Part shown: positions 743 through 41,800 of the stretch, one piece after another
How the letters are laid out: each line of letters starts with the position of its first letter
Position numbering within the stretch: the stretch's first letter is position 1
NCBI GenBank assembly: GCA_951804945.1
Contig: OX638160.1
Location: 11,470,001-11,534,000, forward strand
Direction: 5' to 3'
DNA length: 64,000 nucleotides
Source of the DNA: Podarcis cretensis
Lineage: Eukaryota
Translations under genes and position numbers: made by a program
Notes under the pieces: model-generated
What the model was told of the DNA's origin: nothing
Seen by the model: the letters and a program-made list of their open reading frames with translations, nothing else
Database searches by the model: none

Positions 743-961
743 GAACAGTATTTTGCTCTGCGACCAGAATTACGGACAAGGAACTATGGGAATATTACTG
801 ATCGTGTGGAGTTGAGAAGAAAGTTGAACTGCAAATCGTTTAAGTGGTATTTAGACAATATATACCCAGAGATGCAAATTTCTGGTTCTAATGCCAAAGT
901 ACCGCCGCCACTCTTTTTCAACAAAGGGCAAAAACGACCAAAAACATTGCAACGTGGACGG
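743..961 (+). CDS. GALNT11: GALNT11 coding exon (C-terminal catalytic region/linker), 219 nt
   Basis: AG 741-742, GT 962-963; [45 protein letters not shown]...QRGR, typical GalNAc-T CKSFKWYL motif; phase 0-0. Confidence 0.95.
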
Positions 962-1280
962 GTAAGATGCTGTTCTAACTCTTCAGGTTCTTTAAAATCA
1001 TACTCTGAAAAATGTAGTTATAAAGATCACAAAAGCTGCCATCTGAATTAAAAGAAACTATTATTACTTTCTAGCTGTTGTGCAGCTTCGCAATAAGAGT
1101 AGCTTTGAAAATCTGTAATTATGCACTGTAGTTTTTAGATCAAATATGCTAAAGGTATCATATCAGTCTTACTTGCCTTGCTTCCTGTGCAGGTTAACAA
1201 CCTTCGTTATGGATGAATGTCTTTCACATTTGTAGGTGACTATAATCTCTTGTCTGATCAGAAGCACTCTTGCTTTAGGA

Positions 1281-28300: not shown

Positions 28301-31300
28301 AATGTCCAGAGTCTCTTGACAGGCTGCAATAATGACAAAGCATACACACCTAATGAAATTAGAACTCCAGCATTCTACAGTAATATTTCACAGACACAAA
28401 TAAGCTCTCTGATCTTAGATTCCAATAATGTCAAACCAAGAATCACTGTCATTAAAAATTATAGCTTTTAAGTTTGAATACAAAAGCCATTTAAAAATTA
28501 TCAGTATAATTTATTTACACACAAAAACAGAGTGCTAATGGCAGCAAAACCTTCCAAGCACTGGTTTTATCCAGTTTTTAAGAATATTGTGCAATTATCA
28601 GTTCACAACAGCAGGTTTCCCTCTGGGAAGCACAAGAGAGTGACTCCCTAGAAGATATGTTAGCTATGAATTACTAAATTGGCTGACAAAATATATTATT
28701 CAGTGTTCAGCATGACTATAGTTATTCTTTCTAAGGTGCAGAATATCTTCATCAATGAATATCACTAGTTTATTACTGTGCTCAAACTAACTTATTTTGA
28801 GTAAGTGTGTGACTCAAGTGCTAAAAAAACCTTAAAATCAAAAATACAAGAACTTTTGCCATTCCTTATCTAATTTAAACAAATGGCTGCTTTATGATAG
28901 TATCTGTTCAGGGACCATAATCCAGCACGTCAAAGGAAAACTGAGGTTTATAATTTTCCATACAATCTTAAGCTTCTCCTCACATCTAAACTGGATATTC
29001 ACTAAAACAGTTGCTTGCGAGTAGCCCTGTATATTTGTCACGGGTAAAGGCTGGGATGCTGCAGCTATGTATTCAAAGGCTGTGGAGTTTGCCTTTGAAT
29101 CATGCTTCTCCATTTCCTGCTTTACTTGATGACCTCTAGAGGGGGTGAAAGCCCATATACAGAACATCGTGAAGGAGGAACATGTTCAACCAGTACTGCC
29201 TTTGTTTTTCTTTAAGGGCATATCCTTAGCGGCTGGGCTATTTTAAATTTACAATAAATTTACAATAAATACACAATGCTGCATCATTTCCAATACCCTC
29301 TAAGTTTGGATGTTAATAATAAAAATTGGTTACCATGCTGCCTTCCATCGGATCCCGTTTCCCCACGAATTTGCTCTCCTTAGCACTCTCTTCTGACTGT
29401 AAGCTGCTTTCTGCTTTCTGCTTGAAAAGAGAGGCGGATTTTTTGTTCTTAAGCAAGTGTTTGAGGAGTTCATTCCCTGATTCCCCTTTTGCTGCTGGAA
29501 TGCTGTCAGGTTGTGCCTGATTCTGCAAAGAAGGGGAAGGCTGCACAGTAGCTTTCTCCTCTTCCACTTTAATGCCATTTTCATTCTCCATCTTGGGCTC
29601 AGCCTCACTAGGGCATTGATCAGCGCTTGTCTTTTCCTGATTAATTTCCTGAATGCTCATAGAAGCCTCTGTCTTGTCCTTGTCTGTCTCCTGGTTCATG
29701 CCTGGCTGCTCAGGCAATATGTTTTGTGGCAAATCAGTACTGGAGAGCTGACTTTTCAATTCTAAGGAAGACTGACTCTCTGCAGCATCTGGAGGTGATG
29801 AGCCTGGCAGCTCCTCTGCCTCCGATTCTCCTGGATGCCGTGGAAGTTCACCAGGCGTGCCAACTGTTGGGGTGGAGACAGCATCTGAAACAACTGGAGT
29901 TGGGGGTGCAGTTATATCTGAATGTGGGGTTGATGGGGTATTTACTGACTCAGCATCGTCCTCTTTCTTCTTCTTTCTGGTTCTTTTCTTTTTGCCCTTC
30001 TCCTCTGGAATGATATCGGAATACAACTGGATGAGAGACTGACTTGTTCCAGGAAAGTTTGTTCCATGGGGCATGGCGTCCTGACCACAGGGGGGACCAC
30101 TGCCAGTTCCAGGAGAAACTCCAGGCAGACCAGTGGCAAACTGAGGCCGAACCTGGTACTGTGAAAAGCTTCCACGTGGCTGCTTCACAGAATGGAAAGG
30201 GGGACTTCCGTCTGGAAGTGGGGCAGGATCGGGTACAAAGGAGGAAGATCCCACTGGCTGCCGCTCACTACACTGCGGAAAGCTGGAAGCAGGTGGGGAG
30301 TTTAGAGGTCCTTGCTGCATAATGGGTCCCAACTGCTGCTGTTGATGCTGTGGAGATTGCTGAAGAGGCCGTGAAGGCCGCATGAAATCACAAGGTAGGT
30401 CTGAATTGAAGAACGGTATTTGAGGCAAAGAAGTTCTGGCATTTAATTCCGAGCCCATTGTACTGTGCTGTTCCATTTCCATTTTCTGCTGCAGAGCTCT
30501 CTGCCGATCCACCTCCTGCATAAGCTGAATTCGTTGCCTTTCCTGCTGCTCTCGCAAACGCTCCTTTCGCTCACGCTCTTGAAAGCTTTCACTAAATGGG
30601 TTGTTGTCATCGAACTCTACACGTGGTGGTGGCCCTGACTGCACATTTGAGCTAGGAGCTGACACAGAAGTGGGAGTAACAGGATTCACCGGCAACTGTG
30701 CCATTGGTGGCTGCATTCTTGGTACACTGTGTGGGATGTGTGCTGAAGCAGCACTGGGCGGTTGCCATCCAGGCAAACTTGGCATTCTGGGTGGATTGGG
30801 TTGTCCAGGAACAACTATGGCATGCTGTTGATGCTGAAGCTGTTGAGATACCATTGGGAAACTCTGCTGACCCACTGCTGGTGGAGATCCTCCTGGGACC
30901 ATTGCAGGCTGAGCAGGCATACCTGGCATCATTGCATGGGGTCCCATTCCACATTGTTGCTGTTTAATCCGATATTCTTCAATGAGTTCTGCATGCTCTT
31001 TCTGTTGCTTTCGTATCTACAATGTAAGCATGTTATTAAGTGATGTCCCATAAAAGTACATTTTCTGTTTCTTAAGCTGGAGACTTCTGCGAAAAAACAA
31101 ACCTTAATACATATAAGCAATGGAAAAATATTTAAGAAAATACTGGGCACAACATTTTACAAACTTTCTTTAATATATTTTTTTTAATTAGTTAACTGAT
31201 ATTCATTTCTGTGATATATAAATTCACTCTTTTTCCTTATATTGTCTACATTTGAGCTGCAAAGAAAAGAACGACTGGTGCACCTGAAGGGTAGATTTCT

Positions 31301-34300
31301 TTCAGCTTAGCAGGGCTGGTATGTTGGGTTATGGCTCTACCTAACATACCATCCCTGCTAGCTGAAGGAAAACAGAACAACTGACCCGCCTGAAGTGTAG
31401 ATTTCCTGTGGCTTAGCAGGGATGGTATGTTAGGTGGAGCCGTCACCCAACAAACAAGCCCTGCTAGCCAAGAGGAAATATAGATTAATATGCCTACTCT
31501 CAACTGAGGCTAACACTTCATGCCTGTGATAAAGTGAACTCTAGTCCATGAAACCTTATGCCACAATAAATTTGATTGACTCTGTTAATTTGGTATGTAT
31601 TATACTATATTACATTAATGTAGCTCCACTCCCCCTGCCCCCAGCTCATGGGCAACTAGAAAATCTGGGTCCCAAAATGAGTAGGAGTCTCCACAAGTAA
31701 AGGAGGCTTCACTGCTAAAGATAGTTACCCTTGAACATGTGGAGGGCAATGGAGATGGGGACAGAGTTCTTGTGTTTATTCATGCTCTCCCTACTATGTG
31801 TGGTTATTTAAGCCCCATTATGAACACCTAAAGTGGGTTCAAGAAAACCCCTGAACTGCAGACCTGACTCTTCAGAAAGAGTGCAACTCCATTCATAGCC
31901 AGTTAAAAACCAGCATCCGGATCAATGTACCATCTTAGCTGGATTATGTTTCAGCTTGTTTGCCATTCCAGAACTGCCTGCAGACACCTGTTCAGGATTT
32001 CTACCACCTCCCTGGTAGTAAATGGGAAAGCAAGGTAAAGCTGTGTGCTATGCTTTTCTCTATACCCATGTATTCATATTTACCTATTTACACTCATCCC
32101 AAACCTCTGGATAACCTCTCTCACTGACTCCATGTGAATGTTAAAAGCACAGGGAAACAGAAGTCTTTCAGCAGCATCTGCTAGATCCGCCTCTCCAGAA
32201 AAGGCCCAATCCACCATATCTTCAAGTTCATTCCAGAGAGGCTATCCAGAAGAGTACTATAGATGATGGTATCAAATGTTGCTGAGAGGTCCAGGAGAAA
32301 CAACATGGTTGCATTTGTTCTGTCTGCTCTGTGGCACAGGCGAGGCACCTGGGCAGCCAAGACCATTTTTGTCCCAAAATCAAGTCAAAGGTTAGACTAG
32401 ACCAGGTTTAAATTTTGGGAATACCACAACCTGCTCTAACCTGTTCAAAAATGATAGCTTTGACAGGGGACAATAATTCAGGAGTATGTGAAAATCTAAA
32501 AATACTTATGTGGCTCTGAATCTTATATTTTTGTTTCTTTATAAAAAATTGCTACCACCTTTTCTGCCAGTTTTAAAATTGTTGCTATTGGAACACTTGC
32601 AATTTAGTTATTGATAAACTCTCACCTGTTCAAGTTGTTTTTGAACCATACTCTGCTGCTCAGTAACATGCTTGAGCTGCTCCGCATCTTCCTCTGGGAA
32701 TTCTCGACCAGCTTTCTTTGCAGTGCGCTGTTTTGCAGATAGTGCCTTTTTTGATTTTCTGTGTGCTCCAATTTGTTCTTCAAGGAATTTCTGCTGCATC
32801 TGAAGAAGCTGCTGTGTTTCTTGTAGCCATTCTTCATATTGCTTTCTGTGTGAATCATCTAAGGATAAAACACAACAAATCAATTTTCTTACCATGGGTT
32901 TTGCAAACTTTCACAAATCTCATTTTCAAACTGATTTCAAAAAGAAGGGATTTTCTTTCATATCAGCCCCCCACACCAAGTATTAACACCTTTCTCTTTT
33001 TGTAATAGAGAAAAAATAAATTATTTTGAATAAAATAAGAAAAGAGGATGTAAAGCATCAACAAAATCTGGAGCATGCAAGTATGCATTAACATCCTTCA
33101 AGGCAGAATTTAAGGCCAATCTTTTCTTACCCTAACCAAGAAATCAAGTGCTACCCCTTTGAAACTGACAATGGGGCTACAAAATCTTTTCCCCCCTTTT
33201 AAAAAATAAGTTTATATAAAATACATATGAAAATGAATGTCAGGTTAGTCATTATTACCCTAATATTATCATCTAATCAATGCTAGTTATTCTGAGATGT
33301 TTCTGCAACTGGTTTTTCCACTTTTTATAAGTTCGATAGTTGTCACATTTCAAAAGCTTACTATGCACTGGCTCAGAATATTTCAGTTAATTGTGTCATA
33401 ATTCAATTATTATCTTTGAAAAGGCTTGTAAATAAGCTGTGTGTATTCTGAAATATAATATGTGCCCATGGAGTTGGCTTCAAAGTCTAATATCAGTTTA
33501 TGAGAGTTCTATACTTACTTACAAAACCAGGACCAAAATTTGGAGGGTTGGGCCTAGACATCTGCGGTGTCAGGTTTCCATCCTTGAAAGTGGGGGGGAA
33601 ACAGAGTGTGTTAAACAAAATTCTGTTTTACAGTTGCTCTGAAGCTGTGAGGAATGGGAATCTGCTACATTCAACACGTGGCCAAGAGGCTGCTGCTACT
33701 GGGTTTGGGTTATAGGTTGTGGCATACTTATGGACCCAGTCCAGAAAACATCCTGCTTCCCTTGTGGGATGATGAGCTCCTTGACAAAGAGACGATCATT
33801 GCAATAAGGTGTAACAGTGCAACTCACCTGCTCATCTCAGGTAAGGACAACAATTCAAATGTCTAGGATTTCAATCCAGAGACTTACTCAACTCATGAAA
33901 ACATTAGTGGCTGTGGATGCAGGTTTGTCTGAATACTCTATCTATTATAGCACATCAGCTTTTAGACCACAATTCCACTTACGAAAATCTGCTTTACTTC
34001 AAATTTCAGGACACGTTACCTGTGTGATTGCTTGCTGGACAAGATTCTGGCTTTCACCACTTGGTACTCCTGGCACTGCTTGACCCATAAAGGCAAATCT
34101 AGTAATGGGTAAATAAAATCACATTTTGTATTTTTTTTTACAGCTAAAATTAATGAAGTGTTAATAATATGAGATTTTGATATAAACTAATCTCAGAAGG
34201 GAAACAGTGTGCTCCTGGGCATGCACAGTCTGCTGCTTCACCTTCCCAGCCCCTGCCCTTTTCTGCATACCACAGAGTTATTGCTATGTGCAGAGGAAAA

Positions 34301-38800: not shown

Positions 38801-41800
38801 ATTTAAACCTACTTGTAGAACAATTTTGAAATTAAGGATACTAAACAAGATCACTTACTTGAAGAGGTTACATATTTTTGCCCCTGCTTCAGTGTTTTTC
38901 CACAGAAAAGCAAATGTTCAGCAGGTTCGATAAAAGGGTCATGAATTCAATTTAAAGTGATTGAGTGTAGCCTTTAATGTATGTGCAGCATTACATTCAG
39001 ATATAATTTTAAACCGGAACATTTTTAAAGGGTCACTTAATATAAGCAACACTTAAAACATATAGATAAAGAACCCACAAATTTATTAAATGACGACATA
39101 TTTTATGATGAAGTAATTAAGAAGTATACCTAATTCCATGAGGTCTCATTGCCATTCCACCCATATCTCCTGGAAATTGGGGTCTATTAAACTGCCCATC
39201 GATGGGAAATCCTGTGAACCTCAGTCCGCTGGGAGGGACAATGGCTGACCTAATATTCCCAGGATACGGAGGAGGAGGTCTGTTAAAAATCTGGTTCAGA
39301 TTTTCTTGCTGCTGCCATGGTTGAGTAGATCCTGCATGAGGTGCTGTGGTAGGCTCTTGTGGCATTTTCTCTTGACGGATTGCATTCTTCTTTTGTTGTT
39401 GCTGCTGCAGAATAATCTCACGTAATTTCTGGCGCTGACAGGGAACAAAAACAATTCAGCTCCTTTATTTATTTCATTCTTATCCCACCCTTCATCAGCA
39501 AGCGATCCCAGGACAGGTTATATACATAATGAAACATGAAAACAGAACAAACAGTAAATAAAATATTAGAAGAACATAGAAAAAGCACATAAGTAACACA
39601 TATCTCCTTCCAGCATTAATACCACAAAATCAGTTCCCCTCTCTGCATCAGAAGCCTGAAGGAAGAGATGAGCTTTTGGGCTGGTGCTAAAAACACTAAA
39701 CAATGTCCGCACCAGCCATTATCTCGAGGGGGAGATTATTCTACAATTGGGGTGTCACCACTGAGAAGATCCTATTTTATGTAACTGAGTACCCCTCAAG
39801 AGATGGGACAAGCCGAAGGGCTTCCCTGGAAGTTCTTAAAGCTGAGGAAGAAAAATAAAGGAATATGTGTTCCTTCAGGTATCTCGGTTCTATGTTGTTC
39901 AGGGCTTTGTAGTCACCACTAAACCCTGAAGTGGTTTCACTAGGATACAGACAGTGTTAAAGGCCTGATACTGATGATAAGACTACTGCCACAGAATACA
40001 AAATACCTGCATCTTATAGTATAAAAAAAAAACGATTTACTGATCCAACACAGCCACTATGTTTCTAAAAGCTATTGATAAGTTCCATCAACTCTGGCAT
40101 CTCATAGTTTTCACAAGCACGTTATTCAACAACAGTAAACTCACTTGTCTTATTTTTTCTGCATCTGCCTGAGACATTGTGGTCGGCGTATTTGTTGCTC
40201 CAGCTGTTGGTACTGGGCCAGAAGAAGCTTGGGGGAACTGTTTTCCCTGCAAGCTCATGGAAGAGTTTGCAGATGAGCCCAAATTCCCCTCTGATCCAGA
40301 TCTTGGCTGATCTGCAACATCGTGGGGAAGCTGAGCGGTTCCAAAAGTTTCTGACTGAGGTCTTGGAGTCATTGGAGGTTGATCATAAGGATCACAAGGT
40401 GGTGCTGTTGAAGCATGGCTAAAAGAATCTGTCACAGCAGGTCCCAATAGCTTTGGAGGCTGAGAACACGGATCTGATGGCCTTACAAATGTCCCAGGTA
40501 AGGTCCTGTTCTGTGATGCCTGCAGATAAGGATCACGATTTGACATTAGGGCTGGTCTACTGTAAGGTTCTGGAATTCCAGGCCTTGGTGTTGCTGGTGG
40601 TTGAGAATATGGATCACTACTAACCGGCCTTGGTGTACCTGGAGGTTGGGCATATGGATCAGAATGCCTTTGATTTGCTGAAACCTGAGCAAATAAGTCT
40701 CCAGTCTGTGCAGGTCTTGGTGTGAGTGGCTGATGCATGTATGGGTCAACAGCAGTGGGGCGAGGAGTACCCGGAGGCTGGGCATAGGGGTCTGCAACTG
40801 GCCGAGGAGTACCCGGAGGCTGGGCGTAAGGGTCTGCAACTGGCCGAGGAGTACCCGGAGGCTGGGCGTAGGGATCTGCGACAGGCCGAGGGGTACCCGG
40901 AGGCTGGGCGTAGGGGTCTGCGACAGGCCGAGGAGTACCCGGAGGCTGGGCGTAGGGATCTGCGACAGGCCGAGGGGTACCCGGAGGCTGGGCATAAGGG
41001 TCCTGAGCAACTGCCCTTGAAATAGTTCCAGACTGAGAAAAAGTATCACCCTGGTTTCGCACTACTCTTTGTGGGTGGGCAAAAGTCTCTTTTATTGCTG
41101 GATGTGGAGTCAGAGGAGGCTGACTATATGGGTCATTAGATGGATTGTGTGAAAAGCTATCTACTGGCTTTGGTGTCAAAACAGGCCGTTCATAGGGGTC
41201 CACAGACATGCGCCGTGGGGTTGGTGGCATTGAAGCATATGGATCTTGTGGGGACTGAGTTGGGCGCATTGGAGTTTTAAATGGGCCAGGACTTCCCTCA
41301 ACAGCAGGAATGGGAGTCAATGGTGGGCGTGCATATGAGTCAGCAGGAGACATCCGGGGCCTAGGAAACGAATCTGTTCTGGGAGGTGGTTTAGCAAATG
41401 GGTCACTGTTTGCCACTGATAAAGATGCTTTCCCTGGTTGTTCTGCAATTAAAGGTGATCTTGATATTCCCAAAGGTTTGGAGAAAGGTTCCGTTCCCAT
41501 TGTAGGCCTGGGTGTATCTGGAGCTTTTGCATAAGGGTCACTGTTGACTGGAGACAAAGAACATGAATCTCTGACAGGTGATGGCCTGCTCCCTGTTGAT
41601 TCAGATGCCTGAGCTGGCCTGGATAAGGGTGAAGGGGGTGGACAGATATCTACTGATGTAACAGAATTTATTCTGACAAAGTTTTGATTTTGGTTAACAG
41701 GTGGTGGCCTAGGTGTCCCCACCATTTTTGCATAAGGGTCAACAGGAGAAGGTGGTCTGGCAGAGGAGCAAGGAGGAAACATCTGTTGTGATGGTGCCTG

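Follow-up and report, generated by a model that had tools for sequence, protein, structure and literature searches.

A double hairpin in a Podarcis cretensis intron is probably a remnant of the ends of a DIRS retrotransposon

In the DIRS elements of Anolis, the right extension (rE) is 26-28 bp long and the right half of the internal complementary region (ICR) 58-60 bp (PMC3266345 Table 3), and in those of Xenopus LAP2alpha is a domain of ORF1 (PMC9210276). The cDNA of DIRS-1 was found to be mostly linear, and amplification of the junction failed (PMC7192593). Solo LTRs and other recombination remnants of DIRS are expected, and had not previously been investigated (PMC8498967). Based on the analysis of a 64,000-nt stretch of the Podarcis cretensis contig OX638160.1 (the window), we propose, with a probability of about 0.82, that a 215-bp intronic double hairpin is what is left of a DIRS retrotransposon, namely its left end, its right end and, between them, an inverted copy of the segment that joins the ends; the coding sequence is gone, and the remnant is likely a neutral fossil.

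The double hairpin lies in a 1609-nt intron (31017..32625, minus strand, GT..AG) of a KMT2C/KMT2D-family gene, and the joint between 31016 and 32626 is carried by 25 spliced reads. The downstream exon at 15524-16756 matches a KMT2D chain (E 5.5e-145) and holds the Pfam domains FYRN and zf-HC5HC2H; sequence resemblance and synteny with GALNT11 suggest that the host gene is KMT2C rather than KMT2D. The acceptor at 31017/31016 is 291 nt from position 31308, in agreement with the distance of about 290 nt given by the first-pass annotation, which had read the locus as tandem pre-miRNA-shaped hairpins with a flipped second core.

All pieces of the 215-bp locus match the termini or the ICR of a low-copy DIRS (tyrosine-recombinase) family in the same genome, and on the minus strand they follow the order of left terminus (48 bp), 89-bp end-to-end junction and right terminus (about 75 bp including a 27-bp extension). 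The left terminus (31432..31479, minus strand) comprises the first 48 bp with a start of ATT/TTT, is of the single-T type without rE, and aligns with four left-terminus-like copies (L021, L070, L071 and L075), all of which begin at the same T run and lack rE. The right terminus (31265..31342, minus strand) is identical at 63/78 positions to that of the family locus L003, and is composed of a terminal TTT (31265-31267), the 27-bp rE (31268-31294), whose motif is common to the complete DIRS copies L059, L062 and L064, a divergent inverted terminal repeat (ITR; 31295-31328) and a 14-bp stub of the conserved ITR (31329-31342). T-rich triplets, namely ATT/TTT at the left and TTT at the right, appear to bound the whole, and no empty site was seen. 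Between the termini, the ICR-like segment (31343..31431, plus strand) is inverted with respect to both of them, with a left half at 31343-31372, an AAA junction at 31370-31372 and a 59-bp right half at 31373-31431; its stretch 31340-31427 matches the L003 ICR at 67/90 positions, in register across the junction. The 89-bp junction is the reverse complement of the ICR, and on the minus strand it reads right end, TTT and left start, the order predicted for a circle junction.

This composition accounts for the hairpins themselves. Each of the four arms represents the segment that both DIRS termini and both ICR halves have in common, loop 1 of the first-pass annotation is the conserved ITR stub, loop 2 lies in the left terminus, and what had been described as a single T bulge is the difference between the left and right termini. 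Because flanks, arms, loops and bulge all derive from DIRS termini or ICR, the hairpin units were not born from host intron sequence. No gag, RT/RH/MT or YR reading frame exists within the 215 bp, and therefore the locus is a DIRS-derived remnant, not an element. It retains the DIRS1-like inverted, non-identical termini, the right one with a 27-bp rE and the conserved ITR cut to 14 bp, as well as an ICR complementary to both ends with halves overlapping at the 3-bp AAA junction. However, whereas the ICR of a canonical DIRS, read on the element strand, is the complement of the termini, here it stands direct, not inverted, to them, an arrangement found at this single locus genome-wide with the search pattern used.

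Other matches in the genome keep the pieces in the canonical DIRS order: on the minus strand, L003 carries a YR-like C-terminus, the ICR and the right terminus, and L004 shows the same order of pieces. The identities of terminus to ICR are similar in the window (49/61 and 26/33) and in L003 and L004 (45/57 and 29/36), and therefore the three belong to the same age class. A genome search with the L003 protein piece gave 21 matches, one of them to itself; the piece is 44% identical (E 1e-13) to an HSTR-bearing frame of L060, in which another frame matches a PHROG integrase (E 3.7e-4). Searches of Pfam, PHROGs and the protein database gave no match to the L003 piece, and its catalytic motif has decayed from HSTR to HSMM, so that its YR identity rests on this chain of matches; the L060 frame gave no match in a PDB search. 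Locus L062 has all DIRS repeats together with Pfam LAP2alpha above the cut-off, and RT as well as LAP2alpha occurs in related elements. The rE motif has 28 exact matches against 0 for the control, with YR within 1.5 kb in 7/28 and an inverted partner in 14/28. The genome searches turned up no full-length member of this exact family.

About 36 short matches to query positions 179-242 were dropped as a separate high-copy 47-bp insert that is present in L003 and absent from L004; as these had crowded the family search, in which 40/258 candidates were scored, it was repeated without the insert. Six of the eight junction-pattern matches were rejected as chance, all in one Gly-rich coding-like repeat on C6, and six matches with two mismatches were without extended similarity, except for a weak 36-bp match in L010. 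The copy number is low, with at least seven other loci in the genome, none of which has this double hairpin, and the hundreds of copies that would mark an ordinary MITE did not appear. We therefore give next to no weight to a MITE or a hAT-type DNA transposon pair as the source. The inverted repeats are indeed short, and the arms start with CAGGG, which resembles the ends of hAT elements; but the searches found no large set of uniform copies, the arms have no flanking 8-bp direct repeat, the homology extends beyond them into rE and YR-bearing elements, and this reading is contradicted by the way L003 and L004 are built, as DIRS elements.

The repeat geometry of the first-pass annotation was largely reproduced. 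Two direct copies of 98 nt each, spaced 106 nt and 76% identical, are present; 31340-31360 pairs with 31414-31434 at 21/21 positions, the outer arms at 19/21, and the loops match as reverse complements at 8/11 but directly at 4/11. The flipped core holds as well, since the 53-bp cores agree at 48/53 as reverse complements versus 40/53 directly. Each unit is predicted to fold into a hairpin on its own, but the 21-bp upper stem ascribed to both is incomplete in unit 2, whose own arms pair at 17/21 only. The predicted folds on both strands are very stable (z = -12.2 on plus and -11.7 on minus; 0/200 shuffles equally good), and the predicted dominant one on either strand is a long inverted repeat at 31292..31482 with 69-nt arms, 83% identity and a 53-nt spacer. 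On the minus strand, on which the host gene is read, hairpin 2 contains a 3x3 internal loop and the basal stem of hairpin 1 is interrupted. Folded alone, the units reach predicted energies of -42.6 and -41.8 kcal/mol at pre-miRNA size, yet they are outcompeted by the long stem, which is favoured in the models by 11-16 kcal/mol; the energies are not close, and so the proposed bistability between two hairpins and one stem is not supported at equilibrium. In the pre-mRNA, the locus would thus mostly form one long imperfect stem that is spliced out with the intron. In organisms A-D the long fold keeps a predicted energy between -100.7 and -113.3 kcal/mol, so that, as a point against neutral decay, the stem is not visibly falling apart.

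The element occupies the same intron site in five related organisms, among which, in the rows listed and with low power for such close organisms, 9 sites vary in its 218 bp against 30 in 652 bp of flanking intron (p = 0.85), while 0 vary in 117 exon bases. Seven changes fall in long-stem columns, of which five break a pair, one makes a wobble, one mends a pair and none is compensatory; three of the five pair-breaking changes come from contigs of organism E with depth below 5 and may be errors. The reading of the remnant as a co-opted locus for a miRNA or endo-siRNA that Drosha/Dicer would release from the intron gains from its persistence at one site, its very stable stems (z about -12) and the repeat-derived miRNAs known in mammals (PMC3059204). 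Nevertheless, we judge it very unlikely, as substitution runs at the intron rate, arms are not more conserved than loop and flanks at this low power, and on the transcribed strand the local hairpins have a predicted probability near 0 versus 0.975 for the long stem; conservation thus lends the novel loci of the first-pass annotation no support. No Rfam family lies on 31265-31480 even at E up to 10, and the scan of 30000-33000 gave two weak matches, neither on the element.

ADARs incidentally edit long intronic duplexes, and the 69-bp, 83% stem, transcribed with its intron, would be a duplex of that type, which could suggest a functional RNA switch or edited element controlling the acceptor 291 nt away. 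Such a function is highly improbable: on the transcribed strand, the two-hairpin ensemble is predicted to fall short of the long stem in stability by 11.0-12.3 kcal/mol, and all 25 of the 25 listed junction reads (15 and 10 from two runs of organism E, at low depth) use the normal clean splice, with no other joint listed, so neither conservation nor splicing supports the switch suggested earlier. An alternative fold may be trapped kinetically during transcription, and incidental editing of the long stem, which is not function, is possible though we think it unlikely. For organism E, two bulk RNA runs and a single-cell run gave no reads over the element; since such libraries miss small and nascent RNA, this does not bear on expression or editing. 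As it stands, the striking four-arm fold is a false lead, being the built-in repeat logic of DIRS ends.

An ICR inverted relative to its termini is unlike any canonical DIRS, and for its origin we infer, at somewhat less than even odds among the histories considered, one aberrant copying round on a folded single-stranded DIRS intermediate. The paired inverted repeats would have been crossed by switching template at a short ACC microhomology, so that copying passed over the interior and ran through the junction of the two ends; one breakpoint would then have been mirrored to the opposite side, and the product inserted by the DIRS recombinase at a T-rich triplet. The two window breakpoints are mirror copies, alike at 31/36 positions. 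Alternatively, a full element or a head-to-tail pair was inserted first and collapsed later by hairpin-driven deletion in host replication, after which either the single collapsed unit was duplicated in tandem and one core flipped, or an inversion of the ICR took place between the complementary arms that it contains. This history holds a substantial minority of the probability, given that unit 1 is formally unit 2 with a reversed loop and that single collapsed hairpins of 102-140 bp exist in other DIRS families (L090, L106 and L107; 3/27 other DIRS-end loci). However, the unit-to-unit divergence (about 20-25%) equals that of terminus to ICR in L003 and L004, and any duplication is therefore about as old as the insertion; breakpoints differ among the three collapsed hairpins, yet the window's two are exact mirrors, which argues against two independent collapses. 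The duplication and hairpin-mediated micro-inversion of the first-pass annotation thus formally fit as one possible history, with the units taken from DIRS ends and not from the intron, whereas the polymorphic loop orientation it envisaged was not seen, as no flipped or single-unit allele occurs in contigs of the five organisms. Some later correction between the long arms would have brought them closer to each other in sequence than the flanks are: differences fall at 5/53 positions in the cores and at 13/52 in the flanks (p = 0.04), which simple decay does not explain, and which fits arm-to-arm correction, although weak selection on the stem would fit too.

More speculatively, and in our view rather improbably, collapsed 100-140-bp hairpins of fused left and right termini could form a recurrent, undescribed class of DIRS remnants, the counterpart of solo LTRs, with this locus a double one that freezes the end-to-end junction of the postulated circular intermediate in a chromosome, and could readily supply reptile introns with hairpins of pre-miRNA size. 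If so, cataloguing collapsed and doubled DIRS ends across the genome would yield breakpoint data on the folding of the single-stranded intermediate, show whether the ends are joined prior to insertion, which eluded PCR in PMC7192593, and measure the loss route called uninvestigated in PMC8498967. Among the papers listed on head-to-tail and non-autonomous DIRS, template switching, DIRS-derived miRNA and squamate DIRS, such a remnant appears in no title or abstract opening.

Compared with Anolis AcDIRS1 and AcDIRS2 and the Xenopus DIRS1-like elements (PMC3266345, PMC9210276), the remnant shares the NTT start of the left terminus, the divergent ITR, the 27-bp right extension, the 59-bp right ICR half, the AAA junction and the segment common to four repeats, but it lacks gag, RT/RH/MT and YR, measures 215 bp versus about 6 kb, has its ICR inverted relative to the termini, and keeps 14 bp of conserved ITR where Anolis DIRS have 136-140 bp. 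As in the repeat-derived miRNA hairpins of PMC3059204 and the MITE-derived miRNAs, transposon inverted repeats have given a pre-miRNA-sized intronic hairpin, although here the source is a YR retrotransposon and no constraint was detected in five close organisms. As in the expected DIRS solo LTRs (PMC8498967), terminal sequence persists after loss of the interior; yet loss between direct repeats, leaving one copy, is expected there, whereas here both inverted termini persist as hairpins. The 215-bp remnant deserves some interest solely because it may preserve, as a fossil, the joining of DIRS ends, in that its middle 89 bp, like the DIRS-1 circle junction predicted by the Cappello model (PMC7192593), reads right end, TTT and left start along the strand on which the outer termini lie, but unlike that junction it is chromosomal and lies between two further termini, and by sequence it is indistinguishable from an inverted ICR.

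The 215-bp element at 31265-31480 is a real feature, and we consider, with a probability of about 0.93, that it originates from a DIRS, a tyrosine-recombinase (YR) retrotransposon. It contains two 98-nt direct copies, spaced at 106 nt and 76% identical, across both of which extends an inverted repeat of 69 nt (83%). The arm pairings described in the first-pass annotation (inner arms 21/21, loops 8/11, outer arms 19/21) were confirmed, and the arms of unit 2, the second hairpin-forming copy, pair with each other at just 17/21. Folding was well above chance expectation on both strands (z ~ -12). However, the bistability claimed between two hairpins and one long stem does not hold at equilibrium, as the long stem is predicted to be favoured by 11.0-16.3 kcal/mol on both strands. 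For the transcribed strand, the predicted mean pair probability is 0.975 for the long stem and ~0 for the local hairpins, and forcing the two-hairpin fold carries a predicted penalty of 12.3 kcal/mol, or 11.0 with 450 nt of context; for the other strand, penalties of 16.3 and 13.2 kcal/mol are predicted. The two-hairpin state may still act as a kinetic trap.

The own-genome search returned four matches, two inside the window and two elsewhere (L003 and L004), the latter containing the same pieces in a different order; the hundreds of copies first considered as the mark of an ordinary MITE were not encountered. On its minus strand, L003 carries in order a recombinase-like C-terminus, a match to 31340-31427 and, ~190 bp on, a match to 31268-31342 in the opposite sense, which is the layout of a DIRS 3′ end, namely YR, internal complementary region (ICR) and right terminus. 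The L003 protein piece by itself had no match in Pfam, PHROGs or the protein database, and its identity therefore depends on 36-46% matches to relatives, some of which bear an HSTR motif. It has 21 genome matches, itself counted, and nine more regions were examined, seven around these matches and two around terminus matches. Left terminus, ICR and right terminus are present in L059, L062 and L064; clear matches were obtained for two of five frames, with LAP2alpha above the Pfam cut-off in L062 and an RT piece slightly below it in L061, and one of three frames gave a PHROG integrase match (L060, E 3.7e-4). The inverted terminal repeat (ITR)/ICR layout and LAP2alpha are described for DIRS in passages of PMC9210276. 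The "shared flank" motif of the first-pass annotation is the right-terminus extension (rE) common to all these elements, with 28 exact matches versus 0 for the reversed control, YR adjoining in 7/28 loci and an inverted partner in 14/28.

Several other observations were made at these and further loci. A 47-bp insert at L003:1874-1920, absent in L004, has many genome-wide copies (258 candidates, mostly this insert), and the DIRS fragment at L004:1370-1460 ends ~30 nt past an exon that resembles one of a voltage-gated sodium channel. L060 (G000:C11:4.493-4.503 Mb) and L059 are clusters of several YR-bearing DIRS copies, direct and inverted, possibly nested insertions. At L080-L085 (G000:C6:34.84 Mb), a tandem repeat of coding-like sequence rich in Gly and Ala extends over several kilobases, its periods being 18, 72 and 162.

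Alignment of 15 terminus pieces assigned the right terminus to 31268-31342 (63/78 to L003), the ICR match to 31343-31431 (in register with the L003 ICR across the AAA junction; 67/90 for 31340-31427) and the left terminus to 31432-31479. The last, as in four other copies, begins at the T run, lacks rE and has one T versus two in right termini; this one-base difference between left and right termini is what was reported as a "T bulge". The rE and right ICR sizes agree with those given for Anolis DIRS in parts of PMC3266345 (26-28 and 58-60), which also mention that the two ITRs and the two ICRs have a short conserved sequence in common; the element's four arms are this sequence. The orientation is odd: followed along the strand that carries the outer termini, the middle runs from the right end through TTT to the left start, and the whole therefore amounts to terminus-to-terminus hairpins paired head-to-tail.

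The two breakpoints share both the base at which the ITR stops and the arm base at which the sequence resumes, with a 3-base microhomology, and they are 31/36 alike as mirror images. A single event that was later copied is a likelier source than two separate deletions. The termini match the middle of the element to the same degree (49/61, 26/33) as they do in L003 (45/57) and L004 (29/36), whereas the younger L064 has 50/55 and 33/34; the arrangement therefore dates from roughly the period in which the family was active. According to passages of PMC7192593, the single-stranded DIRS cDNA regains its ends by using the other repeat and the ICR, and a template switch across paired repeats during this restoration would produce the arrangement in one round. 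A later collapse followed by duplication and core flip may instead have occurred, or the ICR may have been inverted between its arms, each of which yields the same letters. Differences number 5/53 in the cores versus 13/52 in the flanks (p = 0.04), which fits later arm-to-arm correction, and weak selection may also lie behind the greater core likeness.

In a pattern search of 1.5 Gb, two direct rE motifs 76-106 nt apart matched once, at this element. The only other direct rE partner among the 28 loci (L102; 26 bp, 335 nt distant) has the position of that locus's own left ICR half. Single collapsed hairpins occur at L090, L106 and L107 (3/27 other rE loci; motif near locus position 1501), where the right terminus is joined directly to the left within 102-140 bp, the interior is absent and the breakpoints differ among copies; L095 and L096, judged by eye, are less clean cases, and a targeted pattern search again returned L090 and L106 only. 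In the literature, searched mostly at listing level, neither collapsed nor doubled DIRS ends were described; the repeat tables that supplement PMC3266345 and PMC9210276 may be relevant here. That collapsed hairpins form a recurrent class, and that this locus has kept the joined ends of the replication intermediate, is a tentative and rather doubtful proposal.

The host intron (31017-32625, 1609 nt) belongs to a minus-strand gene of the KMT2C/KMT2D family, which we take to be KMT2C. Tail-to-tail with it, window 743-1051 (+ strand) holds an exon-like, polypeptide GalNAc transferase-like frame, presumably GALNT11. After 31490, organisms B, C and D of the related organisms A-E carry 30 additional bases, absent from A, which resemble 32049-32078; a direct repeat thus flanks ~560 bp containing repeat fragments. 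Short high-copy fragments with many contigs piling up lie at 31510-31580, with loose ends like a squamate SINE tail, and at 32242-32302, and a frameshifted minus-strand fragment at ~31900-32050 resembles a LINE reverse-transcriptase C-terminus. Elsewhere, 40761-41002 is a G+C-rich tandem array (42-bp unit, 5.8 copies, 93% matches).

The analysis covered eight of 24 listed sequencing runs. In contigs of A-E, the element occurs at the same site and orientation, spanned in one piece in A, B and C and in overlapping pieces in D and E, and no strand-changing joint was listed. Among A-D, 9 positions of the 218 bp element are variable versus 30 in the ~650 bp of intron around it (p = 0.85; three comparison rows lie outside these counts) and zero in 117 exon bases. 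The long-stem columns in A-E show seven changes, five pair-breaking (three from contigs with depth under 5), one wobble, one pair-mending and none compensatory, and the predicted fold energy is similar throughout A-D despite the changes. Bulk RNA from organism E (two runs, ~12% of each) gave 15 and 10 reads over the normal splice, with no other joint listed. Rfam had no match on the element. The element is very probably neutral.

MicroRNAs derived from repeats are a known class (PMC3059204). DIRS remnants are expected from direct-repeat recombination and are said, in passages of PMC8498967, to be uninvestigated; the present element is a different product from the remnant expected there. In the way it works it resembles the terminal repeat system of DIRS1-like elements, from one of which it derives, but it differs from them in two defining features, as it lacks coding frames and its ICR orientation differs, and it is therefore a remnant rather than a DIRS element.
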